In this document: positions 12,507 to 57,521 of the stretch, piece by piece
Layout: each line of letters starts with the position of its first letter
Numbering within the stretch: position 1 is the stretch's first letter
NCBI GenBank assembly: GCA_044225365.1
Contig: JBGAIQ010000001.1
Span: 288,001-352,000, forward strand
Reading direction: 5' to 3'
Length of the DNA: 64,000 bases
Origin: Planctomycetota bacterium
Lineage (GTDB): Bacteria; Planctomycetota; B15-G4; JADJEK01
Program-made: the position numbers and the translations under genes
Notes under the pieces: generated by a model
The model's input: only the letters and a program-made list of their open reading frames with translations
Told to the model about the DNA's origin: nothing
The model's database searches: none

Positions 12507-14450
12507 TCAGATGTTCTGGAGGAGCGAGTTCAGGAGCTCTTCCGACGCGCGGATGACGCGCGCGCTGGCCTGGTAGCCACGCTGCGCCTCGATCATGCGG
12601 ACGAACTCCTGCGCGAGGTCGACGTTGCTCGACTCGAGCACGCCGGACTGGATCGAGCCACCCGGCCCGCCGCCGGCCGAGAGGTTCGCGGTGCCGGAGT
12701 TCACGGTCTCTTCGAACAGATTGTTGCCCTGACGGCGCAGACCGCCGGGGTTCGCGAAGTTCGCGAGCGCGATGACGCCGAAGGTCTGGCTCTGGCCATT
12801 GGTGAACGACGCGCGAACGGCGCCGTCCTCGGTCACCGTGACGTCGGCGAGCGTGCCCGCCGCGTAGCCGTCCTGCGAGATCGCCTGCGCGGTGGCCGGA
12901 CCACCGAATTGCGTGATGCCGTCGATGCCGGTCGAGGTGCCGCTCTTCGGCGAGCCGAAGTTGAGGTCGATCGTCTGATTGCCCGTCACGAACTGGAGTT
13001 CGATGTTCGGGTCGCCGGCGCCGGTTCCGCCTGCGTTCTGCAGACTGCCATCCGAGTTGAATCGGATATTGGTGACGGAGCTGTCGAGCACGAGTCCGTC
13101 GTTGTCGGGCAGCGTCGCCGTCAGCTTCCACTCGAGAGCGTCGACGCGGTCGAACGTCAGCGAGAGGATGTGACTATCGCCGTTCTTGTCGTAAACGGTG
13201 ATCGCCGTGTTCACTTCGTCCGGCTTCGTGCCGGGTTGCTGCACCACGAACTGGACGTCGCTCCACGACGCGCCACCGACGTTGCCAGGAGCGTCGGCGA
13301 TCGAGAGTGCGTACTTCGCTTCACCGGGATTGTCGGCGGTCAGGGTGAGCTTGCCGTCCGCACCCAGAGTCACCGTGGCGTCGGAGAAGTGCGACTGGAT
13401 GAACGTGTTGAGGTCCCCGACGGTCGTGCCGGTCGTTCCGTAGACGAAGGTATCTTCGAACTCGGTGCCGTCCGACTGGATGCCCGAGATCGTGATTCCG
13501 TCGCCGTTCTGATACTGCGCCTCCGTGGAGACGAGGGAATTCAGGTCGGTCGCGGCGAGGGCAGCCGATTCCGTGCCGGTCGTCGAGACCGTCTGCAACC
13601 CGAGGGTGAAGGCGGGCGAACCCGTCACGTCGGTGAGCTTGATCGACGAGCTGTTTCCGAGCTTGTTCGACTGGATGTCGACGTTCGAACCGTTCGCGGA
13701 TGCGGTCACGCCCGTAGCCTGCGTGTTGATCACTGCCGCGACCTCGGCCGCGGTAGCCGCCGCGATGTTGACGAAATCCGCTGTGTGGAAGGTGATGGTC
13801 TGCGGCGGGCCGCCGTCGACCTGCAGGGTCATGCTGTCGCCGTTCGTGAGAGCGAAGGGCCCGCTCTTCGAGCCGGAGACCAACGCGGCGGTACCGGTGC
13901 TGAGCGGATTCGTCGTTTCCAGGATGGCCGGCAACGGGCCATGGACCGTCGCGGGGAGGTTGCCCTGCATCGTCACGGCGGCGGTCGGTTGCGGCGGTGC
14001 GATCGCATTCGGCGGTACCACGATCGAGGCGCCCGTCGCGGCCTTCACCGTGTAGCCCGTGCCAAGGTCGACGAGCGTGCCGTTCGCGTCGAAGCCAAAG
14101 GTGCCGGCGCGCGTGTAGAAGTCCCGCGAGCCGTTGTTCAGCACGAAGAACCCCGGGCCGAAGATCGTGAGGTCGAGGTTGCGATCCGTCGCCAGGATCG
14201 ATCCCGAGCTGGTGTCGATGTCGATCGACTTCACGCCGACACCGAGGCCGAGCTGCGACGGGTTCTGACCGCCGACCGTCGCCGATGGGGCGGATCCGGG
14301 CGACGTCGTGATCGACAAGAGGTCGCCGAACGTCGTGCGACCCGATCGGTAGCCGACCGTGTTCGAGTTCGCGATGTTGTTGCCGACGACGTCGAGGCTG
14401 GTCTCGAACGCGCGAAGGCCGGAGAGTCCGGTGAATAGCGAGAGGCTCAT
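12507..14450 (-). CDS. flgE: Flagellar hook protein FlgE (long form, 647 aa)
   Basis: N-term SLFTGLSGL...LDVVGNNIANSNTVGYR; YTRAGTFGFD; C-term LESSNVDLAQEFVRMIEAQRGYQASARVI. Downstream of flgD. Confidence 0.95.
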   Translation of the reverse strand: MSLSLFTGLSGLRAFETSLDVVGNNIANSNTVGYRSGRTTFGDLLSITTSPGSAPSATVGGQNPSQLGLGVGVKSIDIDTSSGSILATDRNLDLTIFGPGFFVLNNGSRDFYTRAGTFGFDANGTLVDLGTGYTVKAATGASIVVPPNAIAPPQPTAAVTMQGNLPATVHGPLPAILETTNPLSTGTAALVSGSKSGPFALTNGDSMTLQVDGGPPQTITFHTADFVNIAAATAAEVAAVINTQATGVTASANGSNVDIQSNKLGNSSSIKLTDVTGSPAFTLGLQTVSTTGTESAALAATDLNSLVSTEAQYQNGDGITISGIQSDGTEFEDTFVYGTTGTTVGDLNTFIQSHFSDATVTLGADGKLTLTADNPGEAKYALSIADAPGNVGGASWSDVQFVVQQPGTKPDEVNTAITVYDKNGDSHILSLTFDRVDALEWKLTATLPDNDGLVLDSSVTNIRFNSDGSLQNAGGTGAGDPNIELQFVTGNQTIDLNFGSPKSGTSTGIDGITQFGGPATAQAISQDGYAAGTLADVTVTEDGAVRASFTNGQSQTFGVIALANFANPGGLRRQGNNLFEETVNSGTANLSAGGGPGGSIQSGVLESSNVDLAQEFVRMIEAQRGYQASARVIRASEELLNSLLQNI

Positions 14451-14514
14451 CTTCTGTTCCTGGTTCCCGGTTTCGTGAGGGGTTCGTTTCGACTGGGGCG
14501 CGTGAGACGTGCGA

Positions 14515-14988
14515 TCAGGTGGCCGTCGCGGGCGGGGTCTCGGCGGTGATTCCGGTGACGGCGTTCATCGGGACGTCGGTGCCGTTGATCGAGAGCAGCA
14601 GCGAGCCGTTCTCGAGCTTCACGGCGGAGACGAGTCCGGCGCCTTCCTTCTGCGTCGTCGGATCGACGTACTTCACGTTCTTGCCGACGAGCGACGCCGA
14701 CTGCGTGAACGCGTTCTGCCCGGCGACGACCTGCTGGAGCTGGATGAGGCCGGAGAGCTGCTTGTTGAGCGTCGACGTCTCCTGCACCGAGGCCATGCCC
14801 GAGATCTGGGTGATGAAGTCCTTGTCGCTCACCGGCTCGCTCGGGTCCTGGTTCTTGAGCTGCGTGGTGAGGATCTTCAGGAAGAGATCCTGATTGCTCG
14901 TCGGCTCGTTCGACTTGGTCGATTGCGTGCCGTAGCCGTACTTGTCGAAGAGGACGTTCTGCGCTGCGCTGGTATCCATGTCGATCAC
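14515..14988 (-). CDS. flgD: Flagellar hook capping protein FlgD
   Basis: FLKILTTQLKNQDPSEP...FITQ and ASLVGKNV; synteny fliK-flgD-flgE. Confidence 0.93.
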   Translation of the reverse strand: MIDMDTSAAQNVLFDKYGYGTQSTKSNEPTSNQDLFLKILTTQLKNQDPSEPVSDKDFITQISGMASVQETSTLNKQLSGLIQLQQVVAGQNAFTQSASLVGKNVKYVDPTTQKEGAGLVSAVKLENGSLLLSINGTDVPMNAVTGITAETPPATAT

Positions 14989-14989
14989 C

Positions 14990-23408: not shown

Positions 23409-24116
23409 TCACTGCTCGGGATCGTCCGAAGCGGTCGTGTCGAGGAGGGTCTTGACGATCCTGCGGGCGGCGAACTTGCCGAACCAGGCGGGTGAGCTCG
23501 ACATGATCTCGTCGCCCATGACCGTCTGGTCCTTCGCGGCCTCGGCGTGGAAGAAGTCCTTCATCGCGACTTCGGTACCCCGATCGGAGGCATCGACGAA
23601 GTCACGGACTTCCCAGATGATCTTGCCGGTCTGCACGTCGATGAGCGAAGCGGAGATCCCGAGTGCGGGCGGCGCGTAGGGCCGGTAGTTGTCGATCGAT
23701 CCGAACATCACGGCGTCGACGCCGTATCGCCGGCCGAGCTCGATGATCGTGGAGATCTCGATGCGTCCGGTCTGCTTCGGTCCCTGCGCGGCCTTGGAAG
23801 TGGCATCCGAGGGTGCGGGCTGCACGACGTCGAAGCGTCGCAATTTGGTGATCTCGTCGCGGAGACAGGAGTTGACGCCGTCGCTCGGCGCTCCGGTCGC
23901 GGATTCGTCGGCGAGCGGCAGCACGAGCACGCGGCGGATCGTTCCGCCGTCGAGGCTGATGTCGCGATAGGCGCGGGGCGGCGCGATGGGGTCGGCGACC
24001 ATCGCCATGGATCGATCCTTCGCCGCCGTCATCCGCGAACAGCCAACGCCCGTGAGACAAAGCGCCACGAGAGCGAGTTCCAGGCTCGATCGAAACCACT
24101 TGGACCGCGACGCCAT
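23409..24116 (-). CDS. Lipoprotein with CsgG/PelC/DUF799-like alpha-beta fold
   Basis: Lipobox GVGC; RRVLVLPL...RFDVV...LGRRYGVDAVMFGSI...ISASLIDVQTGKIIW. ATG 24116 follows the upstream stop by 2 bp. Confidence 0.7.
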   Translation of the reverse strand: MASRSKWFRSSLELALVALCLTGVGCSRMTAAKDRSMAMVADPIAPPRAYRDISLDGGTIRRVLVLPLADESATGAPSDGVNSCLRDEITKLRRFDVVQPAPSDATSKAAQGPKQTGRIEISTIIELGRRYGVDAVMFGSIDNYRPYAPPALGISASLIDVQTGKIIWEVRDFVDASDRGTEVAMKDFFHAEAAKDQTVMGDEIMSSSPAWFGKFAARRIVKTLLDTTASDDPEQ

Positions 24117-24118
24117 GA

Positions 24119-24685
24119 TCAACCGTCCTTCGTTCGCGTGCGGTCGCCGATCTCGCGCTCGAGCAACTCCTTCTCGAAAGCGAGGCGTTGTCGCTTCTCG
24201 AGCGCGAACATCTGGGCGAGTGTGGCGCGGTCCTTCTCGAGTCGTGTCTTCTTGCCTTCGAGCTCCTCGATCTGCTTCGTCTTCCCTTCGAGTTCCTCGG
24301 ACAGCTGCGCCACGGAGTCCTTCAGGCGCTGGGTCTGCTCCGTGAGTTCGCGACACTGGCTCTCCGAATTGCCGAGCTTCTCCTCCGTGAGTCGCCGCAG
24401 CGCGATCGCCTTCGCCAACTCGTCGCGGAGATGTTCGTTGTCCTCGAGGAGCGTCGTGCGCGCGGAGAGCTGGGTCGTCGCGCCCTTGGTCGCAGCGTTC
24501 GCAGCGACGGCTTCCTTGTCCTCGCTCGATCCGGTCTGGGTGACGACATCGTTCGGATCGTGCGGTCGCGGCCCCGATTCCTTTTCCTTGCCGGAGAGCA
24601 GTTCCGTGGTGCCGGAGCACGCGGAGACCGTCAGGGCGAGGACGATGGCCGTGATCGTCGAAGTGGTCGATTTGCGGATCTTCAT
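24119..24685 (-). CDS. Coiled-coil lipoprotein, unknown function
   Basis: ATG 24685 (MKIRK...LALTVSAC lipobox). The C-terminal ~110 aa are heptad-rich E/K/L/R. Confidence 0.7.
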   Translation of the reverse strand: MKIRKSTTSTITAIVLALTVSACSGTTELLSGKEKESGPRPHDPNDVVTQTGSSEDKEAVAANAATKGATTQLSARTTLLEDNEHLRDELAKAIALRRLTEEKLGNSESQCRELTEQTQRLKDSVAQLSEELEGKTKQIEELEGKKTRLEKDRATLAQMFALEKRQRLAFEKELLEREIGDRTRTKDG

Positions 24686-24737
24686 TGCGGTCGCTCGTGT
24701 GGTAGGGCGCGATGGCGCCGTCACTGGTTCCTGGCGG

Positions 24738-25010
24738 TCAGGGCTTGCCCGCCGCGGCGGGGGTTCCGGAGACCGAATAATCGCACTCGATCGTGATCGT
24801 CTCGCCGCAGCGGCAGCGGGCGAGGATCCGCGCCACGCGGTCGCCGTCACGAACGACTTCGATCCGCGGTGCCGAAGCGATCGCAGTCGGTTTGCCGCTG
24901 CGAGTGCATTGTGCGAATTCCGGCGGAGTGATCGCCTTGGTCTCGGCGCCCATCGCTCGCAGGATCGCGCCAGGCCGTACCCCGCTCTGCTTCTTCGTTT
25001 CGTCGCTCAT
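24738..25010 (-). CDS. Small hypothetical protein with a CxCG...C motif
   Basis: 90 aa; start overlaps the fliA stop (ATGA); IEVVRDGDRVARILARCRCGETITIECDY. Confidence 0.65.
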   Translation of the reverse strand: MSDETKKQSGVRPGAILRAMGAETKAITPPEFAQCTRSGKPTAIASAPRIEVVRDGDRVARILARCRCGETITIECDYSVSGTPAAAGKP

Positions 25011-25759
25011 TTCGGGTCGCTCCGTGAATTGCGTTCGACCTTCGCGCGAACCTTGTTCTCGGCGCAGGCCAGGATCTGGCAGACGCGTGATTCGGTGACC
25101 CCGAGCAACGTCCCGATCTCCTTCAGGTACAGGTTCTCCGAGTGGTAGAGAACGAACACCTGGCGCTCGCGCGGTGAGAGCTGCGAGATCGCCTCTTCGA
25201 CGCGGGCCACGATCTCCCGGCGCGCGACGTCGTCGCTCGGCTCGAGACCCTTTTCGTCGGGTGGATCGAAGGCCGGAGCCTCGTCGTCGTCCGCACGAGT
25301 CGCGATCCGCGCCTCGCTGGCGAGGAGCTTCGACTCCTTGGCGAGTTGGAACAACTGCTCCACGTCTTCGGTGGTGATGCAGAGCGTTGCCGCCAGTTCT
25401 TCGGGGGTCGGCGGGCGGCCGAGCGTCGCACGAGCGTCGGTCTCGGCTCTCTCGAGTTCGTGGATGCGCGCGCGAGCGCCGCGCGGAAGCGGATCGTGTC
25501 GCCGCAGTTCGTCGAGGATCGCCGACTTGATCGCGAGGTACGCGAAGGTCCGGAAGGACGCTCCGCGCATCGGTTGATAGGTCCGTGCCGCGTTGAGCAG
25601 TCCGAGGGTGCCGGCCGAGAGCAGGTCATCGCGATCGATACCGGGAGGGATCGAGATCGGGAGTCGTCCGACGACTCGCGGCACGAGGTCGAGATTCCGA
25701 GTCGCGAGGTCGTCGCGAGCGGACTTGTCGAGGACGGATGGTATTCCTGCGTCAGTCAT
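25007..25759 (-). CDS. fliA: RNA polymerase sigma-28 factor FliA/WhiG
   Basis: DDLLSAGTLGLL, FRTFAYLAIKSAILDELRRHDPLPR, LGRPPT.EELA, LKEIGTLLGVTESRVCQI. Confidence 0.95.
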   Translation of the reverse strand: MTDAGIPSVLDKSARDDLATRNLDLVPRVVGRLPISIPPGIDRDDLLSAGTLGLLNAARTYQPMRGASFRTFAYLAIKSAILDELRRHDPLPRGARARIHELERAETDARATLGRPPTPEELAATLCITTEDVEQLFQLAKESKLLASEARIATRADDDEAPAFDPPDEKGLEPSDDVARREIVARVEEAISQLSPRERQVFVLYHSENLYLKEIGTLLGVTESRVCQILACAENKVRAKVERNSRSDPK

Positions 25760-42960: not shown

Positions 42961-44537
42961 GTCCCGTCGCACGCACGCTACCGCTCGCCACACTGTTCCT
43001 CGCGATCGTCCCGAGCCTGACGAGAGCACAGTCGGAGATCGAACTCCTGCCGCGACACCCCGAGGTGGTTGCGCGCGAGGGCAAGGATCACTCGATGCGC
43101 TTCACCGTTCGTGGTCGCGATTGTGCGATCGTCGACTACCTCGCGGTGCTCGCGGAGCGCGGCGGGATCTCGATCGTGAGCGATGAGATCGCGAAGATCC
43201 AGTTGAAGGCGACGCTCGCGACGGTCGAGCTCTACGACCGACGGATCGATCAGATCATCGAGCTGCTCGCCGCCGACGCCGGAGTCGACTCGGAAGTGGA
43301 TTCGACGGGCGAGAAGTTCAAGCTCGTCGGGGTCGCAGCGGGAAGCGATCGCGCCCTGCTTCGCAACTCGATCGAGCAGTTCTACAAGATGGCGCTCGCT
43401 CGCCAGGGCGACGACGAGACGAACGCGCGCTGCCTCGCGGGTCTGGCCGAGATCCTGGAGAGATCCGGTGACTATGCCGGGGCGTACGCGTCCTTCGAGC
43501 AGTTGCTCGCGGAGCACTCGAGCTCGCCGTTCTCCACGGACGCCGAACTCAATCTCGCCGACTGCTACATGCAGCTCGATCAGAATGCACGCGCCAATCG
43601 GGTGCTGCGATCGTTCCTCGCCAAGTGCTCCGACCCAAAGCGCGCGGAGAAGGCGCTGCGTCGACTCGTGAAGCTCCTACTCGAGCAGAAGCGCTTCCCG
43701 GAGTTGGTGACGATGCATGAGGCGTTCGAGCGCATCGGCGTCCTCGAGGGCGAAACACTCGTGGAACTCGCCGATGCGGGCGCCGTGATGATCGAGGAGA
43801 GCGACGTCGACGTCTCCACGTTCCTCCTCGGCTGCTTCCGTGCGTTTCCGAAGGAGCACGCGATGCTCGGTCCCGTCCTCGCGCTCGCCTTCACGAAGCG
43901 CGGTGACGACGAGGCTTCTCGCATCATCCTCGAGAAAACCGCCCAGTCGCTCGACAATACGATCGATTCGACGTCGGCGCTCCTCGCGTACAGCGAGCTC
44001 TCGCGACGCGCCGGTCACTTCCCCGCGGCGTTGCTGTTCGCCGAACGTGCAGTGATGAAGTCCGAGAACAATCCCGTCCTTCGTCGCCGCGCGCATCTGC
44101 TGCTCGTCGACGTCTACGACGCTCTCGGCGACGCACCGCGCGTCTACCACCATCTCTGGGAGGCCGAGCAACTGTCGTCGCTCGAAGATGCACCGAAGCT
44201 CGCTCTCCGCGCCGCCGAGTTCGCGATGGATCGCAACGAACCCGAGCATGCGCGACTGCTGTTCCATTCCGCGGGCCAGTACGAGGGTGTCGGCCTCGAC
44301 GCCAGTCTCGGCGAAGCTCGCGCGCTGCTCCTCGCCGGGGACACCGATCGAGCCATGATGCATCTCGAGGCCCTCCTCCGCGACGACATGAGCGCAACGG
44401 AGCGCCGACGGGTCGAACTCTTGATGGTCGACTGTCATCGTGTCGCGCACGAGTACGACAAGGCCCTGGCCGCTCTCGAAGGCAATCCGCCGGAAACGAA
44501 GACGCCGGACGCGAAGGCGCCGGAGGCGAAGAAATGA
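42957..44537 (+). CDS. Secreted TPR protein with an N-terminal STN/secretin-N0-like domain
   Basis: Signal peptide (…SLTRA|Q); FTVRGRDCAIVDYLAVLAERGGISIV...TVELYDRRIDQIIELLA; TPRs such as GDYAGAYASFEQLLAEHSSSPF...LADCY. ATGA-coupled on both sides. Confidence 0.75.
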   Translation: MSPVARTLPLATLFLAIVPSLTRAQSEIELLPRHPEVVAREGKDHSMRFTVRGRDCAIVDYLAVLAERGGISIVSDEIAKIQLKATLATVELYDRRIDQIIELLAADAGVDSEVDSTGEKFKLVGVAAGSDRALLRNSIEQFYKMALARQGDDETNARCLAGLAEILERSGDYAGAYASFEQLLAEHSSSPFSTDAELNLADCYMQLDQNARANRVLRSFLAKCSDPKRAEKALRRLVKLLLEQKRFPELVTMHEAFERIGVLEGETLVELADAGAVMIEESDVDVSTFLLGCFRAFPKEHAMLGPVLALAFTKRGDDEASRIILEKTAQSLDNTIDSTSALLAYSELSRRAGHFPAALLFAERAVMKSENNPVLRRRAHLLLVDVYDALGDAPRVYHHLWEAEQLSSLEDAPKLALRAAEFAMDRNEPEHARLLFHSAGQYEGVGLDASLGEARALLLAGDTDRAMMHLEALLRDDMSATERRRVELLMVDCHRVAHEYDKALAALEGNPPETKTPDAKAPEAKK

Positions 44538-48418: not shown

Positions 48419-48754
48419 ATGCAAGCCGATAGCACTCGTTTGTTGACCGCGGCCCTCGACGGGCTCGCAGCTCGCCAGCGCGCGATCTCCGCGAACCTCG
48501 CGAACAGCAGCACGCCGGGGTACAAGCGCATGACCGTCAGTTTCGAGGATCAGCTCGAGAGCGCGAAGAAGGGCATCTCCATCGCGCCGAAGTTCGATCG
48601 CGACTCTGCACAGGGTGGCCCGGACGGCAACAACGTCGACCCCGCTACCGAAGTCGGGCAGCTCACGCGCGTCGAGCTCAGTTACCAGGTGATCGCCCGG
48701 GCCGTGGCGATGGAATCGAATCAACTCCGCGCCGCGATCAGCGGTCACGCGTGA
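48419..48754 (+). CDS. flgB: Flagellar proximal rod protein FlgB
   Basis: ALDGLAARQRAISANLANSSTPGYKR, DGNNVD; GAGGAG RBS. Confidence 0.93.
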   Translation: MQADSTRLLTAALDGLAARQRAISANLANSSTPGYKRMTVSFEDQLESAKKGISIAPKFDRDSAQGGPDGNNVDPATEVGQLTRVELSYQVIARAVAMESNQLRAAISGHA

Positions 48755-48777
48755 ATCGAGAAAGCAGGCAAGCGAAC

Positions 48778-49197
48778 ATGTCGAACAAGATCGAACCCTT
48801 TCGCGCACTCGACATCGCCGGCTCCGGCCTCTCGGCCGAGCAGAAGCGGCTCGAGATCATCGCCGGCAACCTCGCAAACGCGCAGACGACGAAGACTCCC
48901 GAGGGTGGCCCGTACCGTCGCAAGGAAGTCGTTTTCAAGACGATCTACGACGGACAGGACCGTGCGCCGATCGTCAAGGTCGCGGGCGTCCACTCGGACG
49001 ACAGCGACTTCAAGCGCGTCTTCAAGGGCGTGGGGGCGCCCGATGCGGACAAGGACGGATACGTCGCGTATCCCAACGTCGACGCCGTCTACGAGATGGT
49101 GGACATGATGGAGGCGATGCGCTCCTACGAGGCGAATCTGCGCTCGATCAAGACGTTCCGGACGATGGCGGACGCAGCCCTGCAGATCGGTCGCTGA
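48778..49197 (+). CDS. flgC: Flagellar proximal rod protein FlgC
   Basis: IAGSGLSAE..RLEIIAGNLANAQTT..PEGGPYRRK, GYVAYPNVD, RSYEAN. Confidence 0.96.
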   Translation: MSNKIEPFRALDIAGSGLSAEQKRLEIIAGNLANAQTTKTPEGGPYRRKEVVFKTIYDGQDRAPIVKVAGVHSDDSDFKRVFKGVGAPDADKDGYVAYPNVDAVYEMVDMMEAMRSYEANLRSIKTFRTMADAALQIGR

Positions 49198-49208
49198 GGA
49201 GGAATCCC

Positions 49209-49529
49209 ATGGAAGCACTCGCACTCGATGCCATCTCGAACGGTCTGTCCAACATCACGAGGCCGGAGCGGAACTCGTCGGTCACCCCCGCGCGTGGCGA
49301 CGGCTTCGGTACGACGTTTCGCGACCTGCTCGGCAACGTGCTCGAGACGTCGGAGACGAAGCAGAACGAAGCGACGCAGATCACCGAGTCGTTCGCGAAG
49401 GGCGAGTCCCAGGACCTCCATCGCGTGATGACCGCGCTCAACGAAGCCGACGTCTCCTTCCGCCTCGTGCTCGAAGTGCGCAACAAGCTCGTCGACGCCT
49501 GGCAAGAGATCAAGCGGATGCCGATCTGA
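49209..49529 (+). CDS. fliE: Hook-basal body protein FliE
   Basis: DLHRVM...EVRNKLVDAWQEIKRMPI. Confidence 0.95.
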   Translation: MEALALDAISNGLSNITRPERNSSVTPARGDGFGTTFRDLLGNVLETSETKQNEATQITESFAKGESQDLHRVMTALNEADVSFRLVLEVRNKLVDAWQEIKRMPI

Positions 49530-49579
49530 GGTTCGCCTCGTAGGCGAATGGGAACGAATAGGAATCGCGGAGAGACCCC

Positions 49580-51187
49580 TTGAAGCAGTTGCTCGCACAA
49601 CTCACGCAGATCTGGTCGGGCGGAACGCCGACCCAGCGCGTGCTCGGAATCCTGTCGCTCGTCATCGTCGGGCTCGGGATCGGCGGCGGCGTCTGGTTCG
49701 CGATGCGGCCGGATCATGCGCTCCTGTTCGGCAATCTCGATCCCGCGGACGCGGGTCTCGTCGTCGAGCAGGTTCGCAAAGCCGGCGTCGAGGCCGAGGT
49801 CCGCGGCGGCGGCACGGCCGTCTACGTCCCGTCGAACAAGGTCGACGAGATGCGCATGATCGTCGCGCAGGCCGGACTGCCGAAGACGAGCGGGACGGGA
49901 TGGGAGCTGTTCGATACTTCCAGCTTCGGGATCTCCGACTTCGTGCAGAACATCAACTTCCTGCGCGCCAAGCAGACTTCGCTCGAGCGGGCGATCGCGA
50001 AGTTCGACGGCGTCGAGAGCGCGACCGTCGAGATCACGAAGGCGAAGGAATCGGCGTTCGTCGCGGCCTCCGAGCCGGCGAAGGCGTCGGTGATGGTGGC
50101 CCTCAAGGCCGGACGGCAGCTCAGCCCGGAAAGCGTTCGCGCCATCACGCACCTCGTGGCCGGTGCGATCGACGGCCTCGACGCGAGCAACGTCAGCGTG
50201 ATGGACACCAAGATGCACCTGCTGTCGGAAGCCGGCGGCGGGCCGCTCGCGATCAACACCAGCAACCAGATCGACTATCAGCGCAACTCCGAGGACTACC
50301 TCGGCCACAAGGCGGAGGGCCTCCTCGCGCTCGCGGGAATCGCGGGTGCGGTGCGAGTGAATCTCGACATCGATTTCCAGCACGTGAAGCAGACTTCCGA
50401 GAAATTCGATCCCGTAGGAACTGCGACCAGCGAGACGCTGGAGACCTCCTCGACGCAGAGCGGTACCAATGGCAACAAGGGCGCCGTCTCCGCGAAGGAG
50501 CAGATCGATCCGAAGACCCAGGACACGAGCGGGGGCGAGACGTCGAACGAGACGAAGGAGACGAGCAAGACCGAGAAGAAGGTCGGCCGCACCGTCAAGT
50601 CCGAGGAGAACGCGACGCCCGTCGTGAAGCGTCTGTCCGTCAGCCTCGTCGTCCAGGACCAGTTCAAGGACAAGCTGAAGGACATCGAGAAGATCGTGAA
50701 GAGCGCGGTCGGCTTCGACGACAAGCGCGGCGACGTCCTGAACTCGATGGTGGGTGCGCTGGAAGCGGCGAAGCCCGTCACGGATCTTCCCGTCGCGGCG
50801 CCGATGTGGCCCGCCCTCGTCGAGCGCGGCATCCAGATCGTCGGCGTCCTCGGCGCGCTGTTCGTCCTCCTCAAGCTGATCAAGGCGATCGAGAGCAAGC
50901 CGGGCACGGTCCGCGCGGTCCCGATCATCTCCGCGAACGGCACCGTCATCCAGGTGGAGCCTGGCGCTCCGCTGCCACCCGGCGCGCGCAGCATCGCGCC
51001 AGAGGCCGCGAATCCGCAGGTGCTGACTGCACCGACCCGGGGCGGAGTGGTGACGGCGGCGTCGGCCGCGGTCCAGGCCGAGCACTCGCCGAATCTTCCG
51101 GACTTCGTCCGCGAGACCGTGAAGACGGATCCCGCCGGCGCGACGCGCGTCCTCCAGAGCTGGCTGCGTGAAGGGGAGCACAACTGA
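49580..51187 (+). CDS. fliF: MS-ring protein FliF
   Basis: LLFGNLDPADAG, GWELFD..SFGISDFVQNINF.RA, KRLSVSLVV, SAVGFDDKRGD; two TMs. Confidence 0.96.
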   Translation: MKQLLAQLTQIWSGGTPTQRVLGILSLVIVGLGIGGGVWFAMRPDHALLFGNLDPADAGLVVEQVRKAGVEAEVRGGGTAVYVPSNKVDEMRMIVAQAGLPKTSGTGWELFDTSSFGISDFVQNINFLRAKQTSLERAIAKFDGVESATVEITKAKESAFVAASEPAKASVMVALKAGRQLSPESVRAITHLVAGAIDGLDASNVSVMDTKMHLLSEAGGGPLAINTSNQIDYQRNSEDYLGHKAEGLLALAGIAGAVRVNLDIDFQHVKQTSEKFDPVGTATSETLETSSTQSGTNGNKGAVSAKEQIDPKTQDTSGGETSNETKETSKTEKKVGRTVKSEENATPVVKRLSVSLVVQDQFKDKLKDIEKIVKSAVGFDDKRGDVLNSMVGALEAAKPVTDLPVAAPMWPALVERGIQIVGVLGALFVLLKLIKAIESKPGTVRAVPIISANGTVIQVEPGAPLPPGARSIAPEAANPQVLTAPTRGGVVTAASAAVQAEHSPNLPDFVRETVKTDPAGATRVLQSWLREGEHN

Positions 51188-52197
51188 TGATCTCCGCGAA
51201 GGGAGCTGCAAAGGTCGCGACGTTGCTCTTGTCCCTCGACAAGGGCACGGCCACCGCATTGCTGAAGCGGCTTCCCGAGGAAGATCGTCGGGCGGTCACG
51301 AAGGCGCTCGCGGACATGCCGGACGTCGTGATCCATCGTGAACAGCAGGAGACGCTGCTGAAGGAATTCCGGCTCACACTCGATGCATCCGAAGGCGCCG
51401 CGGCGGGGGCCGAGCAGATCTGCTCGCTCTTGTCCGAAGCGCTCGGCAACGAGGCCGCGTCCGTCGCCGATCGGCTGAAGACGCAGGAGCGACTGAATCG
51501 GGCGCGCGGCGCGCTGATGGAGCTCGACGCCTCGGCGCTCAGCTTCCTGCTGCGCGGCGAACATCCGCAGGCGGTCGCGGTGGTGCTCTTCGAACTCGGG
51601 CCCGAGCTCGCAGCCGGCGTGATGCCGTCCTTCGAGGAGATGATGCAGCAGGAGTTGATCGAGCGCATGGTGACGATGCGCCCCGCGCCTCCCGAACTCG
51701 TGTGCGAGCTGCTCGACGCCGCGCTCGCAAAGGCGGCTTCGATCGAGCGGACGCAGACCGGCAGCGCGATCAGCACCGAGTCGCGGCTCAAGACCGTCGC
51801 GACGATCCTCAACAAGTTCCGTGACGAGGCGCAGCAGAGCCTCCTCATGAACCTGGAGATCAACGCTCCCGAACTCGCGGACCAGGTTCGCCAGCAGCTC
51901 TTCACGTTCGACGACTTGATGAAGCTCGGCCCGCGCGACCTGCAAAAGGTGCTGTCGGGTGTCGACACGAAGGTCCTCGCGACGGCTCTCAAGGGCGCGA
52001 GCAAGGAACAGCAGGACTTCCTGCTCGGCAACGTCAGCAAGCGCACGGTCGAGCGCGTCCAGGAAGAGCGCGAGACGATGGGCGCGGTGAAGCTCTCGGA
52101 AGTCCGCCAGGCCCAGACCGACATGGCCGGCGTGGCGCGCGATCTGATCCAGCGCGGCGAGATCCAATTCGGCGGAGGAGACGAGCTTGTCGCCTGA
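51187..52197 (+). CDS. fliG: Motor switch protein FliG
   Basis: KVATLLLSL, EHPQ, LFTFDDL, ALKGAS, VSKR. Confidence 0.93.
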   Translation: MISAKGAAKVATLLLSLDKGTATALLKRLPEEDRRAVTKALADMPDVVIHREQQETLLKEFRLTLDASEGAAAGAEQICSLLSEALGNEAASVADRLKTQERLNRARGALMELDASALSFLLRGEHPQAVAVVLFELGPELAAGVMPSFEEMMQQELIERMVTMRPAPPELVCELLDAALAKAASIERTQTGSAISTESRLKTVATILNKFRDEAQQSLLMNLEINAPELADQVRQQLFTFDDLMKLGPRDLQKVLSGVDTKVLATALKGASKEQQDFLLGNVSKRTVERVQEERETMGAVKLSEVRQAQTDMAGVARDLIQRGEIQFGGGDELVA

Positions 52198-52861
52198 ACC
52201 CTCGAAGTCTGCACCCGCGAAGGAACCGGAGAAGGTCTTCGTGCCATCGATCCACTTCGATCGCCTGCCGATCCGACTCAAAGTGGCGGGCGAGAGCCAG
52301 AGCGTCGTCGACTTCGTGCCGGAGCTCGACGAGAGCGGCAAAGCGCGGGTCCGCGAGGAAGCGGAGCGTCGTGCTCGCGCCGAGGCGGAGGCCGCTGCGC
52401 AGCGGGCGGACGTCGATCGCAACAAGCGCCTCGAGGCCGGAATCGCGGCGCTCGTCGCGAGCGCGCAGCACGTGCGATCGGAGCTGACCGCCGAGATCGC
52501 GGCGATGGAACCCGAGCTCGCGAAGCTCTCCTTCGCGATCGCCGCGCGGGCGCTCAAGACCTCGATGGAGGGCGATCCGCTCCATCTCCTTCCCGCGATC
52601 GAGAACGCGATCGCCAAGCTTCGCGCGGGCCTCGACGACGCCGACGTCGTCACGGTCCATGTTGCCGCGAGCGACGTCGAAAGGATCACGGCCGCGGTCG
52701 GTCCGTCCTACGCCGACGGAAAGGTTCGGATCGTCGCCGAGGCGGGCTACGAGCCGGGCCGGTTCGAAGCGCGATGTGACATCCGCAGGATCCGTCACGC
52801 CATCGCGTCCGAACTTGCGTCGATCGCCGCGGAGCTGGCGGAGGACGGAAGCCATGGTTGA
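52187..52861 (+). CDS. fliH: Flagellar export ATPase regulator FliH (divergent)
   Basis: Lies between fliG and fliI; helical stalk plus VTVHVAASD C-domain. Confidence 0.7.
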   Translation: MSPEPSKSAPAKEPEKVFVPSIHFDRLPIRLKVAGESQSVVDFVPELDESGKARVREEAERRARAEAEAAAQRADVDRNKRLEAGIAALVASAQHVRSELTAEIAAMEPELAKLSFAIAARALKTSMEGDPLHLLPAIENAIAKLRAGLDDADVVTVHVAASDVERITAAVGPSYADGKVRIVAEAGYEPGRFEARCDIRRIRHAIASELASIAAELAEDGSHG

Positions 52862-54182
52862 TCGCCTGGCGTCTTCTCTCGCTCGGCGCGCGAGCCCCAT
52901 GCTCCGCAAGGCCGACCTCGTCGTCGAAGGCAGCGTGACCCGCGTGATCGGGATCACGGCGGAGTGCCGCGGACTGTCCCTCGACCTCGGGGAACTCGCC
53001 GCGATCGAGCGTCGCGACGGCACCGAGCTGCTCGCCGAGGCGATCGGATTCCACGGCGACGTCACGGTGCTGATGCCGCTCTCCGAGCTGCGCGGAATCG
53101 GGCCCGGCGCCCACGTGCGTAGCGTCGGATCGCGCCTCGACGCCCCCGCGGGCAACGGCCTCCTCGGTCGCGTGCTCGACGGACTCGGACGACCCCAGGA
53201 CGGCGGCAAGGCCCTCGCCCATTGCGAGCGCGTCGCCGTCGATCGCGATGCTCCGGACCCTCACACCCGCCGCCCGATCCGCGAGGCGTGCGTGACGGGC
53301 GTCAAATCGATCGACGGATTGCTCACGCTCGGCAAGGGCCAGCGCATCGGCATCTTCGCGGGCGCCGGCGTCGGCAAGAGCACGCTGCTCGGCGCTCTCG
53401 CCGCGCGCAGCCGTGCGGACGTGACCGTGATCTGCCTCATCGGCGAGCGCGGTCGCGAGGTGTACGACTTCGTGCGCGACTCGCTCGGACCCGAGGGATT
53501 GCGCAAGTCCGTCGTGATCGCGGCGCCTTCGGACTCGCCGCCGCTCGAGCGCTTCAAGGCGCCGTTCGTGGCGACCGCGATCGCCGAGTGGTTCCGCGAT
53601 CAGGGCAAGGATGTCCTGCTCGTGATGGACTCGCTGACCCGTTTCGGATTCGCAGCTCGCGAAGTCGGTCTCGCCCTCGGCGAGCCGCCGACCGCGAAGG
53701 GATACCCGCCGTCGTTGTTCTCGCAACTGCCGCGGCTCGTCGAACGCGTCGGCGCGCTGGAGAAGGGCAGCATCACCGGGATCTACACGGTCCTCGTCGA
53801 AGGCGACGATCTCACCGATCCGGTCGCCGACTCGGTGCGCTCGTTGATCGACGGCCACATCGTCCTGCGGCGCGCGCTCGCCGAGAAGGGCCAGTATCCG
53901 GCGGTCGACGTCCTCGCGTCGGTCAGTCGCTTGATGTCGCACGTCACGACGCCGGAGCACCGGAAGCTCGCGGAGCGATTCCGCCGCCTCCTCGCGCTAC
54001 ATCGCGACCACAAGGATCTGATCGACGTCGGCGCGTATCGTCCGGGCGCCGACAAGGCGGTCGACGAAGCGATCGCGCGGATCGCCCATCTCGAGGAGTT
54101 CCTGAGGCAGGATCTCTCTGCGCCGTTCGACTTCAAGGCGACGCTCTCCGCGATCGCGACCGCGATCGGAGGCGCACGATGA
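52854..54182 (+). CDS. fliI: Flagellar export ATPase FliI
   Basis: GQRIGIFAGAGVGKST, LIGERGREV, MDSLTRF, GEPPTAKGYPPS, DGHIVL. Confidence 0.97.
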   Translation: MVDRLASSLARRASPMLRKADLVVEGSVTRVIGITAECRGLSLDLGELAAIERRDGTELLAEAIGFHGDVTVLMPLSELRGIGPGAHVRSVGSRLDAPAGNGLLGRVLDGLGRPQDGGKALAHCERVAVDRDAPDPHTRRPIREACVTGVKSIDGLLTLGKGQRIGIFAGAGVGKSTLLGALAARSRADVTVICLIGERGREVYDFVRDSLGPEGLRKSVVIAAPSDSPPLERFKAPFVATAIAEWFRDQGKDVLLVMDSLTRFGFAAREVGLALGEPPTAKGYPPSLFSQLPRLVERVGALEKGSITGIYTVLVEGDDLTDPVADSVRSLIDGHIVLRRALAEKGQYPAVDVLASVSRLMSHVTTPEHRKLAERFRRLLALHRDHKDLIDVGAYRPGADKAVDEAIARIAHLEEFLRQDLSAPFDFKATLSAIATAIGGAR

Positions 54183-54685
54183 GTCTCGCCCGCGAATTGA
54201 AGGACGGCGTCCAGCGAGTTGCGCGACTCCTGCGCCTCCGCGAATTCGAAGAGCGCGCGCGTCGTCAGGACTGGGGCGCGGCGCTCGCAGTCGAAGTCGA
54301 TGCACAGCGCAAGGTCGACGATGTCCGCGGCGACATCGTCCGCTTGCGGGATGGCCTGCGTCAGTCGCTCGCGAAAGGCGAGGTCGCGGGGAGTGCACTC
54401 CTCGACTTCCAGGCGGCGATGGACGCCGCCGAGGAACGCGTCGATCGCGCGCTCGTGGGTCTCGATCGTGCTCGTCGCGATCGCATCGCGAAGGAATCGA
54501 TCTGGCGCGACAGCCGACGCCGCGCGCTCGCGCTCGAGCGCCTTCGCGACCGCCGCAAGGAGCGGTATGGCGAGGAAGTCGCGCGTCTCGAACGCAAGGA
54601 GAGCGACGAGGTCGCGATCCTCCGCTTCGTGCGGCAGAAGCAAGACACCGAACACACCCGGTCGGAAACGACCGCGAAGAGCTGA
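54179..54685 (+). CDS. fliJ: Flagellar export chaperone FliJ
   Basis: ATGA overlap with fliI; coiled coil ending LERLRDR...ERKESDEVA. Confidence 0.8.
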   Translation: MSLARELKDGVQRVARLLRLREFEERARRQDWGAALAVEVDAQRKVDDVRGDIVRLRDGLRQSLAKGEVAGSALLDFQAAMDAAEERVDRALVGLDRARRDRIAKESIWRDSRRRALALERLRDRRKERYGEEVARLERKESDEVAILRFVRQKQDTEHTRSETTAKS

Positions 54686-54697
54686 GAAGGAATCGTC

Positions 54698-55543
54698 ATG
54701 GGCAACGTGATCTCACGCGTCGTACTCGTCGCATTCGCCGTGGTCGGCCTGTTCACCGCCGGCCTCATCGGGACGCTCGGCGTCCGCGGCAAGCTGAACC
54801 GCGAATCGCTCGCGGAACTCGCGGGAGTGAAGGACGAGAACGCCGAGAAGCCAGCGGGCGAGGAAAGCGCGACGGGCGACGTTTCGAAGGACGCGGCCAA
54901 GTCGAACGCCGAGGACGGCAAGGAGCACGGCAAGGAGGCGGCCCCGAACGGAGGGCGTGCCGAATCGTCGCCGCATGCCGTAGCTTCGCTCGCCAGCGCG
55001 GGCCTCGATCGCATCGTGCTGCCCGATCCGTTCTCGAGCGAGAAGACTCACGAACTCTTCGAAGAGCTCGAAGCGACCCGCAGCGAGCTGAAGAACCAAC
55101 TGATCGCCGCACGGCAGAAGGAAGCCGATCTCGAGCTCATCCGGGCGGACCTGAATCGCCGCTGGGACGAGCTCGATCAGCGCGAACAGGAGCTCGAGGA
55201 GTCCCGCAAGGGTGTCGAGGCCGACAAGGTCGACCTGCGCGACAAAACGGTCCTTCTCGAAGAAGCCGAAGATGCGAACTTGAGAGATGCAGCCAAAAAG
55301 ATCGAAAAGATGAAAGCGCAGGCGGCCGCCGCCCTGCTCGAGACGAAGGATCCGGCCATGGCGGCGAAGATCCTGAGCAGTATCGGTGACCGCGAGGCGG
55401 GCAAGATCATGGAGAACCTGAAGCCGGAGTTCCTGAGCAAGGTCCTCGAGAAGGCGATCAACATCATCCGACCGAAGTCGGTGGGATCGAGTTCGACGTC
55501 GAAGGACGGTTCGGGCAGCGCGCCAGGCCAGGACAAGCCGTGA
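54698..55543 (+). CDS. MotE/YlxF/FlbB-like protein (TM + coiled coil + MgtE_N-like helices)
   Basis: N-terminal TM, coiled coil, then KMKAQAAAALL...AAKILSSIGDREAGKIMENL; follows fliJ, as ylxF/flbB do. Confidence 0.7.
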   Translation: MGNVISRVVLVAFAVVGLFTAGLIGTLGVRGKLNRESLAELAGVKDENAEKPAGEESATGDVSKDAAKSNAEDGKEHGKEAAPNGGRAESSPHAVASLASAGLDRIVLPDPFSSEKTHELFEELEATRSELKNQLIAARQKEADLELIRADLNRRWDELDQREQELEESRKGVEADKVDLRDKTVLLEEAEDANLRDAAKKIEKMKAQAAAALLETKDPAMAAKILSSIGDREAGKIMENLKPEFLSKVLEKAINIIRPKSVGSSSTSKDGSGSAPGQDKP

Positions 55544-55565: not shown

Positions 55566-56096
55566 ATGAGTGACGCCAAACAAGAGAATGCGGAAGCTCC
55601 GGCGGCGGCGCCCCCGGCGGGCGGCGGCGGAAAAGCCACCTTCATCGGCGGCCTCTTCGGAGTGCTGCTGGTGATCGGCGGCGGTGTCGCGATCGGGATC
55701 GTCGGATTCCCCGGCAAGCACCACGAGCCGAAGGAGGAGCATCACGATCCGATGGTGGACCCGGAGGCCAAGAAGCCGAGTGCGGTGATGACCGTGCCGC
55801 AACTCATCGTGAATCTCTCGGACACCTCCGGCAAGCACATCCTGCAGTCGCAGTGGTCACTCGAGGTGACCGCGACCGATATTGCCGCGGCATCCACGAA
55901 ATTCTCGGATTGGTTGCCCAGGGTCCAGGACCAGATGATCAAGATCATCTCGTCGAAGCGCTCGATCGATCTGGAAGGACAACAGAACAAGGATTTCCTT
56001 CAGACACAGATCAAGGACCGGTTGAATGAGTCGGTCTTCGCGACCGAGGAAGCCAAGGTCCGCGGCGTCTACTTCACCGAGTTCGTGATCCAGTGA
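55566..56096 (+). CDS. fliL: Flagellar basal-body-associated protein FliL
   Basis: TM then LIVNLSD..GKH.L, PRVQD, VRGVYFTEFVIQ. Confidence 0.92.
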   Translation: MSDAKQENAEAPAAAPPAGGGGKATFIGGLFGVLLVIGGGVAIGIVGFPGKHHEPKEEHHDPMVDPEAKKPSAVMTVPQLIVNLSDTSGKHILQSQWSLEVTATDIAAASTKFSDWLPRVQDQMIKIISSKRSIDLEGQQNKDFLQTQIKDRLNESVFATEEAKVRGVYFTEFVIQ

Positions 56097-56118
56097 AACC
56101 GTTCCGTTCGAGGCAGGC

Positions 56119-57135
56119 ATGAGCGACACGACGAGCGAGAGCTCCGCGAGCGAGGGAGCCGAGGAAGCGCCTCGGATCTTCGGGCGTCGCCACGAGCGCG
56201 GCACTCCGACGGTGGAGACTCGCGATTTCCGCGGCGCGCCGCGTCCGGGGCTCGCGGAGCGCAAGGAACTGGAGGATCTCGCCGCGCGAATCGGGAAGCG
56301 GATCGAGCGCGGCATCGGTAACTACCTGCGCCAGGTCGCGCGCGTCGAATCCGTCGCGCCCGAGGTGCTCGAGTACCAGGAGGCCGTGCGCGGCTTCTCC
56401 GAGAAGGATTGGATCGTTCCGCTGCTCGCCGACGGCGGCGATCGCGGCGTCCTGCGCATCGACGATGCGCTCCAGAACATGCTCCTCACGCGAGTTCTCG
56501 GCGGCGGACCCGTCCCCAAGACGGAGGGCCAGCCCGACGCCGCGCCCGAGGAGGAATTCTTCGAGTACGAGACTGCACTCTCGATCGAAGTCGGCATGAT
56601 CAGTCGCGCGGCACTGAAGCCGCTCGTTCGTGCGATCCTGAGGGAGTGGAACCTGCAGCTCCGTGAGAGCAAGCCTCCCTACGCGCTCGATACGGCCCGC
56701 GAAACCCTGCCCGCGGCGCGGCAACTGCGCTCGAGCGATGTCGTCATTGCGTTCGAGAGCGAACTCTATCTCGGCACCGACCACGGCCGCATCCAGCTCC
56801 TGCTGCAGGCGTCGTCGCTCGCCGAGATGTTGAATTCGGCCGCGTCGGAGCGCAACGTGAAGGCGCCGGTCGATCCGAAGACGCGTCGTGGCATGGAATC
56901 CGTGGTGCGGTCGATCGATGTCGGAATGGCGGTTGTGCTCGGCGGCGCGTCCATCGAATTGAAGGACTACATGAAGCTCGGCGTCGGAGACGTGATGATC
57001 CTCGATCGCAAGGTCGGCGAGCCGCTGCGCGTGCTCGCGGGTGATGCGGGTGAATTCACTGGCCAGCCCGGTCGGATCGGCAACAAGATCGCCGTGCGCA
57101 TCCTCGAGCGACTGGATTCGGAGACCTCATCATGA
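56119..57135 (+). CDS. fliM: Motor switch protein FliM (no N-terminal CheY-binding motif)
   Basis: RDFR, CheC-like middle domain (LLTRVLGG), C-terminal SPOA (LGVGDVMILD, GQPGRIGNKIAVRI); between fliL and fliN. Confidence 0.8.
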   Translation: MSDTTSESSASEGAEEAPRIFGRRHERGTPTVETRDFRGAPRPGLAERKELEDLAARIGKRIERGIGNYLRQVARVESVAPEVLEYQEAVRGFSEKDWIVPLLADGGDRGVLRIDDALQNMLLTRVLGGGPVPKTEGQPDAAPEEEFFEYETALSIEVGMISRAALKPLVRAILREWNLQLRESKPPYALDTARETLPAARQLRSSDVVIAFESELYLGTDHGRIQLLLQASSLAEMLNSAASERNVKAPVDPKTRRGMESVVRSIDVGMAVVLGGASIELKDYMKLGVGDVMILDRKVGEPLRVLAGDAGEFTGQPGRIGNKIAVRILERLDSETSS

Positions 57136-57521
57136 GCGACAGCGAAGTCATCGAGGGCAACGACCCCACGCGGGGCGCCGACCCGGCGGCGGCGACGCTC
57201 GACGCGCCGTCTTCCGAGAGCGAGGGTCCCAAGGCTGCACCGGTGCGTTTCCCCGAACTCCATGGATCGGCCGCCAAGAGCGGCGAAACGGCTCTCGATC
57301 GCATCTACGACCTCACCGTTCCCGTCACGGTCGAACTCGGCCGCGCGACGCTCTCGGTTCAGGAGATCCTCGAACTATCGCCCGGCGCCGTCGTCGAACT
57401 CGACCGCGCGGCGGATGCTCCCGTCGAGCTCTTCGTCCACGGCAAGTGCGTCGCCAAGGGTCAGATCGTCGTCGTCGACGGCTACTACGGCATCCGCATC
57501 ACGGCGCTGAAGGAGAATTGA
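57132..57521 (+). CDS. fliN: Motor switch protein FliN
   Basis: DLTVPVTVELGR...ILELSPGAVVELDR...AKGQIVVVDGYYGIRIT. Confidence 0.95.
   Translation: MSDSEVIEGNDPTRGADPAAATLDAPSSESEGPKAAPVRFPELHGSAAKSGETALDRIYDLTVPVTVELGRATLSVQEILELSPGAVVELDRAADAPVELFVHGKCVAKGQIVVVDGYYGIRITALKEN

Follow-up and report, generated by a model that had tools for sequence, protein, structure and literature searches.

The main flagellar island of a Phycisphaerae bacterium (Planctomycetota) carries, in addition to the standard core genes, a conserved set of accessory envelope genes of Planctomycetota type, which we read, giving this interpretation an even chance of being right, as the lineage's version of the E-ring/spoke scaffold. 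The island occupies positions 12507-57521 of the window, that is, the whole stretch of 64,000 nucleotides analysed here (positions 288001-352000 of contig C95, JBGAIQ010000001.1, in the 6.5 Mb, 94% complete metagenome-assembled genome GCA_044225365.1, hereafter G000). Genes were called in this DNA of ~66% G+C through third-position G+C and then verified with Pfam, which confirms the island with a top score of 780 bits for FHIPEP. In the proposed scheme, a transmembrane (TM)-anchored MgtE_N protein encoded after fliJ would form an E-ring around the membrane-supramembrane (MS) ring, like FlgY, FlbB and MotE; a secreted STN/N0-TPR protein would, together with the two membrane-anchored TPR proteins encoded beside it, supply periplasmic spoke or collar elements reaching the stators; and an LpoB-like and a coiled-coil lipoprotein would contribute an element on the outer-membrane side. 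The OmpA-like domain of the family's MotB has lost its peptidoglycan-binding signature, yet is strongly conserved, and stator anchoring probably leans on protein contacts, with the scaffold and/or the P ring, more than in Escherichia coli. The gene content of the accessory set, its conservation, its linkage to flagellar genes, the selection acting on it and the folds of its domains are documented directly.

The initial annotation had taken the peculiarities of this locus as pointing jointly to one undescribed motor architecture. This unity does not hold: the island is not one coherent new architecture and consists of four layers of different age. The first comprises ancient, widespread parts, namely the candidate E-ring protein, FliL and the FlgV-like protein. 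The second is a Planctomycetota-wide accessory module, best read as a new E-ring/spoke variant, for which the chief alternative is a regulatory role. Losses at the order or family level (the MotB OmpA signature, the FliM peptide and flhG) make up the third, and noise specific to this genome (MotB2, the FlhF motifs and an RND insertion) the fourth.

Periplasmic scaffolds of non-model motors set stator number and torque, and the E-ring/spoke idea was generalized only in 2025-2026. The locus provides a Planctomycetota parts list for such a scaffold, in which an STN/N0-TPR protein is joined by two TPR proteins of bitopic type, a candidate E-ring protein of the FlbB type and two lipoproteins, along with two natural experiments, a strongly conserved MotB without the wall-binding signature and a FliM without the CheY peptide beside chemotaxis genes.

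Candidate E-ring and spoke proteins

The accessory set and the histidine kinase (HK) and response regulator (RR) genes fused to it are as follows.

23409..24122, minus strand: Lipo2, lipobox-bearing lipoprotein with a weak LpoB/GNA1162-like domain
24119..24688, minus strand: Lipo1, coiled-coil lipoprotein overlapping the start of Lipo2; orthologues in the loci of two relatives
41173..42960, plus strand: orf595, with, as predicted from sequence, an acidic cytoplasmic N-terminal part, one TM segment and a periplasmic C-terminal TPR-like hairpin
42957..44537, plus strand: TPR526, signal peptide, STN/N0-like domain and TPR superhelix
44534..45691, plus strand: TPR385, N-terminal TM segment, coiled coil and C-terminal TPR
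45688-46950, plus strand: PAS histidine kinase (Pfam)
46947-48416, plus strand: sigma-54-dependent response regulator (Pfam; FlbD/FlgR-like NCBIfam matches below cut-off)
54698..55543, plus strand: MgtE_N protein (TM segment, coiled coil and MgtE_N) after fliJ, candidate E-ring protein of the FlgY/FlbB/MotE kind

A single family, COG3334, unites FlgY, FlbB, MotE and YlxF, all with MgtE_N at the C-terminus; its gene usually adjoins fliJ or fliK, two thirds of its members have an N-terminal TM segment, and an E-ring protein is present in 66% of 1365 flagellated species (PMC13023049). The MgtE_N protein of the island is a candidate member that fits this family by architecture and position, with sub-threshold scores. 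Its gene starts ~19 nt after fliJ, a position identical in G188, a genome of family f9, and in four loci of family f1, to which G000 belongs; the G188 counterpart scores 28.3 bits, above the Pfam cut-off. The MotE/FlbB-like protein and FliL, both counted among the departures in the initial annotation, are ancient and widespread parts, which weakens their standing as departures.

In other lineages, the TPR-rich partners of the E-ring include PflA, MotC, MotK, FlcB and CC_2058 (PMC13023049). PflA combines AMIN with TPR and is tied to type IV pilus parts (PMC11870540), MotK and MotE interact with MotB2 of Cereibacter (PMC10954123), and MotX is tabulated as a TPR protein (PMC13277936). The parallel drawn earlier to PflAB, the FlbB collar and the T ring fits this E-ring/spoke literature. 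As in the FlgY-PflA/PflB scaffold of Campylobacter and Helicobacter, the FlbB-FlcA-D scaffold of Borrelia and the MotE-MotC/MotK scaffold of alphaproteobacteria, the island has a candidate TM/coiled-coil MgtE_N gene beside fliJ, encodes periplasmic TPR-rich proteins within the flagellar locus and includes a secretin-type N-domain, in TPR526, just as PflA and MotK carry AMIN, which is also a module of PilQ. Unlike these systems, which have one or two TPR genes beside motE or motA, the island has three, two of them encoding bitopic proteins with a short TPR part, at the head of an HK/sigma-54 RR operon. The MotX/MotY T ring of Vibrio offers a parallel, in that the repeat protein MotX helps to secure a stator that is not sufficiently anchored by itself, whereas the island lacks a gene for a MotY-like partner. 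None of the imaged motors in section 10 of PMC13023049 belongs to a member of the Planctomycetota; 'planctomycet' has 0 occurrences in the accessible texts on E-rings and scaffolds (PMC13023049, PMC11870540 and PMC13277936), and a literature search, in which subscription journals were not covered, found no paper on flagellar TPR basal-body proteins of Planctomycetota and, among the papers listed, none on a planctomycete motor.

The three membrane/TPR/STN genes are translationally coupled to the head of the basal-body operon, as noted initially: the starts of TPR526, TPR385, HK and RR lie on the preceding stops in four ATGA overlaps, and flgB follows 3 nt past the RR stop. The HK and RR genes go unmentioned in the initial annotation. 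orf595 has a long, low-complexity N-terminal part, and its conservation within the family is limited to residues ~492-558. Proteins of this type share an N-terminal acidic-aromatic motif (DEDLFNFDEL or DEDLFAFDEV; DDFEEL in this genome), beyond which the region, here and in the counterparts (L089, L091 and L090), is of low complexity and differs widely in length, from 170 to 595 aa. TPR526 is exported, TPR-rich and linked to flagellar genes. Its structural model, with a predicted local distance difference test (pLDDT) score of 85, consists of an alpha/beta domain of ~100 residues followed by a TPR superhelix. Searches with the whole protein (Foldseek, VIA-align and PDB profile) returned only generic TPR matches, such as OGT, APC/C, BBSome and BamD, which is uninformative for a repeat protein. 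A predicted complex of TPR526 (residues 30-513) with MotB1 (45-242) reached scores of 0.22 and 0.00, the mark being 0.32; it was run without controls and decides nothing.

The N-domain of TPR526, modelled alone from 24 sequences, reaches a pLDDT of 95. By VIA-align, it resembles FecR-like 4m0h (Z 8.7), the FecA signalling domain (Z 8.5, root-mean-square deviation 2.1, 79/80 residues) and PupR (Z 8.3), followed by the secretin N0 domains of XcpQ, GspD, EscC and PilQ (Z 8.1-7.6); the top Foldseek match is the N0 domain of PilQ (E 2.8e-3). A profile of the domain yields 4226 matches among 1.84 billion representatives, headed by secretins with repeated STN/N0 domains, and a single-copy homologue, P0209, has a weak N0 match (E 1.2e-4). 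The STN label given to this domain in the initial annotation finds no backing in Pfam, 0/10 TPR526-type members matching STN (PF07660) or GspD_N0 (PF21305) at E<=5, but both the fold and the profile relatedness support a predicted STN/N0-like identity. The domain also occurs in a large set of proteins (P0145-P0165) with 3-14 tandem copies, some of which end in a secretin.

These folds and the operon structure bear on the main rival to the scaffold, namely that the TPR/STN proteins act across the envelope as a sensor or assembly checkpoint, with the PAS kinase, which is soluble, and the sigma-54 regulator receiving their signal, and do not belong to the structure of the running motor. The best folds of the N-domain include cell-surface signalling domains, the four ATGA overlaps bind the module to the HK and RR genes, and an orf595-type protein, being membrane-spanning, could contact a soluble kinase with its acidic cytoplasmic part. 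However, structural secretin N0 domains match the N-domain about equally well, the operon runs unbroken into flgB-fliN, so that co-transcription does not single out regulators, and the TPR partners of the E-ring in other phyla are structural (PMC13023049). We regard the checkpoint as unlikely, albeit worth keeping in sight.

The distribution of the module was assessed in a sample of 301 Planctomycetota genomes, of which 171 have flhA. Close full-length TPR526 orthologues are confined to family f1 (5/5 sampled), and four weaker matches covering the N-domain lead to flagellar loci in other families. In three of these loci (G252 and G221 of f9, and G033 of f18) and in a further f9 locus (G188), thus in 4/4 distant loci inspected, the order is the same, with the three genes followed by HK, sigma-54 RR and flgB, a constancy that the checkpoint reading also claims for itself. 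A fifth homologue, in G301, lies 7 kb from fliC-motAB. In G188, the three-gene module is preceded by a gene for a receiver plus HATPase_c_2, anti-sigma-kinase-like protein (L151:17738-18703). With the distant members added, the profile matches 185/301 genomes, mostly as TPR-only noise, which was dropped; a protein search with the alignment of distant members returned 7 close orthologues plus TPR noise. Matches covering the STN part (query start <=61; hand count over the 150 matches listed, with 208 further matches beyond) were found in at least 47 genomes, and 47/47 of these are flhA-positive. Outside f1, the STN-TPR gene shares a contig with flhA, at a distance of 5-80 kb, in at least 16 genomes.

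Among the few loci inspected for both features, the module accompanies a MotB without the OmpA domain (PF00691) in f1, f26 (G301) and f36 (G051), and a MotB with it in f9 and f18, whereas f4, a family of the same order as f1, has PF00691 in MotB and no module was found there. Given its presence beside OmpA-positive MotB in f9 and f18, the module did not originate as a substitute for wall anchoring, and by gene comparison it appears to predate the loss of the MotB signature and to be independent of that loss. The synteny check proposed at the outset gave a divided answer: linkage of the accessory genes to flagellar loci extends from f1 to distant families, but the module is not tied to a MotB lacking GHTD.

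Lipo2 scores 17.9 bits against PF13036 (cut-off 22.3) and 26.3 bits against TIGR02722 (cut-off 110.6), LpoB appears in its PDB profile search at E 0.65, and the nearest named clusters in the atlas carry the labels LpoB (in 18% of their members) and GNA1162-like (in 31%), with a score of 0.94. Matches to Lipo2 were found in 83/301 genomes, and in 32 genomes outside f1 they lie 1.6-12 kb from flhA.

Several observations weigh against the E-ring/spoke reading. The MgtE_N protein falls below the curated cut-offs of both PF03448 (20.3 bits against 25.9) and collar_FlbB (30.4 bits against 110). None of the matches listed for TPR526 points specifically to PflA, PflB or FlcA, and where PflA and MotK have an AMIN/beta-sandwich N-domain, that of TPR526 is STN/N0-like, with no AMIN among the matches listed. 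Many flagellated families are missing from the STN-part matches listed: f8 and f17 are each flhA-positive in 14/15 genomes, and among the matches listed the STN part is covered only in G032 (f17) and in none of f8; f4 likewise has no STN-part match among those listed. The occurrence of the module with a MotB containing PF00691 in f9 and f18 belongs here too, as do a Lipo2 homologue unlinked to flhA in f36 and Lipo2 matches in G128, G166 and G231, three genomes that have no match to flhA. The fusion of the module to an HK-RR operon and the part that STN domains play in signalling in other systems would suit a regulatory function equally well. Finally, every physical contact in the scaffold, and the ring architecture itself, we infer.

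Selection was estimated from the ratio of nonsynonymous to synonymous substitution rates (dN/dS) by the Nei-Gojobori method (NG86) in two congeneric pairs, from genera g6 and g3.

MotB: 0.026 (g6), 0.188 (g3)
TPR526: 0.148 (g6), 0.279 (g3)
TPR385: 0.195 (g6), 0.418 (g3)
GT2-TPR: 0.150 (g6), 0.245 (g3)
HK: 0.073 (g6), 0.187 (g3)
FliL: 0.147 (g6)
FliM: 0.045 (g6)
FliG: 0.028 (g6)
FliF: 0.115 (g6)

All values (0.03-0.42) are far from neutral, and the accessory genes, less constrained than the rotor, are under purifying selection; neutral evolution, named beforehand as a finding that would undo the case, is thus not what the genes display. A dN/dS of 3.28 for FliD in the g3 pair was ignored as an alignment artefact.

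Stator subunits, FliM and chemotaxis

Three genes encode the stator.

37039..37821, plus strand: motA (MotA_ExbB 102 bits, MotA_N)
37848..38576, plus strand: motB1, MotB_plug and an OmpA-like C-terminal domain without the GHTD signature
38583..39296, plus strand: motB2, full-length paralogue of MotB1 with degraded plug and TM segment

As in canonical stators, MotA is intact, and MotB1, whose gene starts 27 nt downstream of motA, retains the plug, the TM segment and the conserved Asp (PF13677, MotB_plug, 76.4 bits), D22 being invariant in the family alignment. Unlike canonical MotB, MotB1 has no PF00691 match at E<=0.01, and the position of GHTD reads NEVE in an alignment to the solved Clostridium MotB 6ysf that holds for MotB1 up to the OmpA-like domain. 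The lack of the GHTD motif in MotB, reported initially, is borne out. In an alignment of seven family orthologues, MotB2 and one sequence from the same order, the GHTD columns show free variation, while the first 60 residues hardly differ and Arg193, which corresponds to the conserved Arg in the OmpA pocket, does not vary at all; in MotB1 of this genome, the Asp of GHTD is replaced by Glu. A search of 5.8 billion proteins placed 33 clusters without PF00691 at the top, MotB1 and MotB2 included, with PF13677 alone or, for MotB2, no domain, whereas 78/87 of the clusters that follow have both PF00691 and PF13677. MotB_plug has a single match genome-wide, and only one of the three MotA/ExbB-family genes adjoins motB. 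A canonical motAB elsewhere, which had been named as a possible refutation, was not found in this 94%-complete genome.

The second, fast-evolving copy without a recognizable plug also sets the island apart from canonical stator loci. MotB2 is 46% identical to MotB1 over the full length, has no PF13677 hit in Pfam, and retains the Asp in a hydrophobic stretch broken by His-Arg. No orthologue was found among 20 relatives or in the protein database. In the tree, which is subject to a long-branch caveat, MotB2 is sister to the MotB1 of its own genome (support 97/97) on a branch of 1.42 against 0.014, and it thus appears to be a young duplicate, evolving ~100-fold faster and confined to this genome, and not a feature of the lineage.

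Tandem motB pairs after motA also occur in f9 (G252, G221 and G188) and f18 (G033), where they are old and mutually divergent. Given the sister relationship to its own MotB1 (97/97), we rejected MotB2 as the counterpart of their second MotB. All eight f9/f18 copies match the plug and OmpA models, with sub-cut-off values among the second copies for the plug in G033 and for OmpA in G188. The Asp is kept in 7/8, the second copy of G033 having Ser (aligned by eye). With such pairs, the B subunit might be heteromeric.

The only OmpA-domain protein of the genome is a coiled-coil lipoprotein (L013:5980-6720) encoded on the same contig, ~54 kb beyond the window. Its motif is canonical (AGHTD...NRRVEI), and the best NCBIfam scores of its periplasmic part are to MotD/MotB-type models. 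We considered this lipoprotein as a flagellum-specific trans anchor and rejected the idea, as it is present in 21/21 relatives, among them three f3 genomes without a MotB match, and is therefore a general envelope protein. Because a canonical wall binder of the OmpA type is thus at hand, the motif loss in MotB is not explained by an unusual wall.

The strong version of the initial proposal holds that a protein scaffold alone, and not the cell wall, keeps the stators in place, and that the motor runs without CheY-dependent switching. As for the stators, it draws on a MotB that is without PF00691 and GHTD across the family and nevertheless strongly constrained, and on the MotB1/MotB2 locus being the genome's only motB. 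Against it, the retained R193 and the change of the GHTD Asp to Glu may permit residual wall binding, and the TPR/STN module stands beside OmpA-positive MotB in other families as well.

The switching half of the proposal depends on FliM, whose N-terminus in other bacteria binds phosphorylated CheY through a peptide of the LSQxEIDALL type. As the initial annotation stated, the island's FliM is without it: the peptide is missing from 5/5 f1 sequences, which share only the stretch DFRxPxRP at this end. The FliM open reading frame (ORF) leaves no room for an upstream extension, and its TIGR01397 alignment begins at profile position 29, with 69 bits against a cut-off of 219.6; FliMN_C meets its cut-off with 59.9 bits, and PF02154 was not reported at E<=0.01. 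The peptide is also absent from G017 (f4), but is present in G051 (f36), G033 (f18) and G188 (f9) and, in a looser form, in G252 (f9), so that its loss is derived. Both this loss and that of flhG appear, from the sequences compared, to have occurred within the order or family. No CheY-binding-type peptide was found in the FliN N-termini, and crude scanning of the genome for the motif in all six frames gave 0 candidates.

Yet the genome has a full set of chemotaxis genes. Contig C66 carries a che cluster with CheA, CheW, a CheY-like receiver, CheB, CheR, a second receiver and a methyl-accepting chemotaxis protein (MCP), contig C34 carries CheR, CheW, CheA and an MCP, and there are ~9 MCP genes overall. 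In other bacteria, CheY is able to act on other sites of the motor. The claim of a motor running without CheY switching is weakened by these complete clusters, and the strong proposal as a whole, wall-free stators included, strikes us as rather improbable.

Another combination can be envisaged, in which the f1 stator is off the peptidoglycan and clamped by Planctomycetota-specific STN/N0-TPR spokes on the E-ring, with chemotaxis output passing through a contact other than the FliM peptide. We offer it as speculation that is distinctly unlikely to be correct; if true, this motor would combine a protein-only stator anchor with a non-canonical CheY output.

FlhF, the fliA neighbourhood and layout of the island

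The remaining genes of the island are listed below.

12507-14450, minus strand: flgE (Pfam Flg_bbr_C/FlgE_D2; orthologues in relatives), product of 647 aa
14515-14988, minus strand: flgD (Pfam FlgD; orthologues in relatives)
14990-16753, minus strand: fliK (Pfam Flg_hook; orthologues in relatives), product of 587 aa
17519-23333, minus strand: resistance-nodulation-division (RND) efflux operon (OEP, AcrB and membrane-fusion protein; Pfam), between fliK and the lipoprotein genes
24738..25010, minus strand: CxCG protein of 90 aa, ATGA-coupled to the fliA stop
25007..25795, minus strand: fliA, sigma-28 (Pfam; NCBIfam FliA_WhiG 186.6 bits)
25837..26058, minus strand: orf73, two-TM protein of 73 aa, FlgV-like by architecture and position
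26066..27220, minus strand: flhF (SRP54 52 bits), GTPase motifs degenerate
27224..32980, minus strand: flhA, flhB, fliR, fliQ, fliP and fliO, export gate (Pfam)
33119..36790, minus strand: orf117 (117 aa), fliS, fliD and fliC (Pfam for fliS, fliD and fliC)
39404..41002, minus strand: GT2 (family 2) glycosyltransferase fused to TPR (Pfam; synteny within the family)
48419..54679, plus strand: flgB, flgC, fliE, fliF, fliG, fliH, fliI and fliJ (Pfam; fliJ frame ~54179-54679)
55566..57521, plus strand: fliL, fliM (without the CheY-binding peptide) and fliN (Pfam, NCBIfam)

The degenerate FlhF and the lack of flhG, both listed initially as departures, were confirmed, with the qualification that the FlhF damage seems, from the motifs compared, to be specific to this genome. 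FlhF scores 78 bits against TIGR03499, under the cut-off of 174, and its motifs read GPPGSGKSMT, DTAA and TGVDIA, where three relatives have GKTTT or GKSTT, DTAG or DTIG, and T(K/R)VDE. flhG was not found in the genome by tblastn with the G188 query (best match 32% over 149 aa); in G188 it sits between flhF and fliA, a spot without flhG across family f1. These observations invite the view that the module controls the polar placement or number of flagella, offsetting the missing FlhG and, here, the damaged FlhF. The family leaves no room for flhG between flhF and fliA, and long acidic, low-complexity cytoplasmic regions like that of orf595 resemble polar landmark proteins. On the other hand, the module is equally present in G188, where flhF and flhG are intact, and its three proteins are mostly periplasmic, which makes a placement role very unlikely.

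As described initially, fliA is followed by a CxCG protein and two lipoproteins, the latter recognized by lipobox and sequence. The CxCG ORF is conserved in 3/3 relatives' loci that cover this spot, and its product is a possible candidate for a sigma-28 regulator. On the other side of fliA, orf73 resembles FlgV in its pair of TM helices, the second of which begins with an Arg, in its polar tail and in its location between flhF and fliA (PMC11607428), and is assigned by architecture and position. FlgV, the BB0268 family, has been reported in PVC (Planctomycetes-Verrucomicrobia-Chlamydiae) bacteria, including Phycisphaerae (PMC11607428).

The complete arrangement is kept in six other f1 genomes, representing all five other sampled genera with a MotB match, and a contig search with one peptide pattern returned seven loci, all from the same family. 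In all family loci, the GT2-TPR gene lies between motB and the TPR module; its product may glycosylate flagellin or another flagellar protein. FlgE and FliK are long, as remarked initially, but unremarkable. The genes flgF, flgG, flgA, flgH, flgI, flgN, flgK and flgL reside on contig C70, so that the motor has ordinary P and L rings. Neither their separate location nor the RND operon nor the presence of fliJ is mentioned in the initial annotation. The gap corresponding to the RND operon measures ~4.8 kb in G005 and ~2 kb in G001, neither with an AcrB or membrane-fusion protein match, and the operon therefore looks like a lineage-specific insertion.

The pump inside the island, the degraded plug and TM segment of MotB2 with its very long branch, and the FlhF motifs damaged in this genome alone are what one would cite for the oddities being decay of a motility system on its way to loss. 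By contrast, all core flagellar genes of the island are open with strong Pfam scores, the rod, P-ring and L-ring genes on C70 are intact, dN/dS in relatives stays at 0.03-0.42, and synteny is kept across genera. General decay is thus most improbable, in agreement with the initial argument from intact core motifs.

The window opens with a 1871-aa ORF (23-5638, plus strand), and an 813-aa metalloprotease-like ORF (58994-61435, minus strand) lies beyond the island. A strict sigma-54 promoter pattern has no match anywhere in the window. Two sets of ORF calls, orf163 (54219-54710) and those on the plus strand at 23326-23970, proved to be artefacts of the wrong frame or of antisense reading and were discarded.

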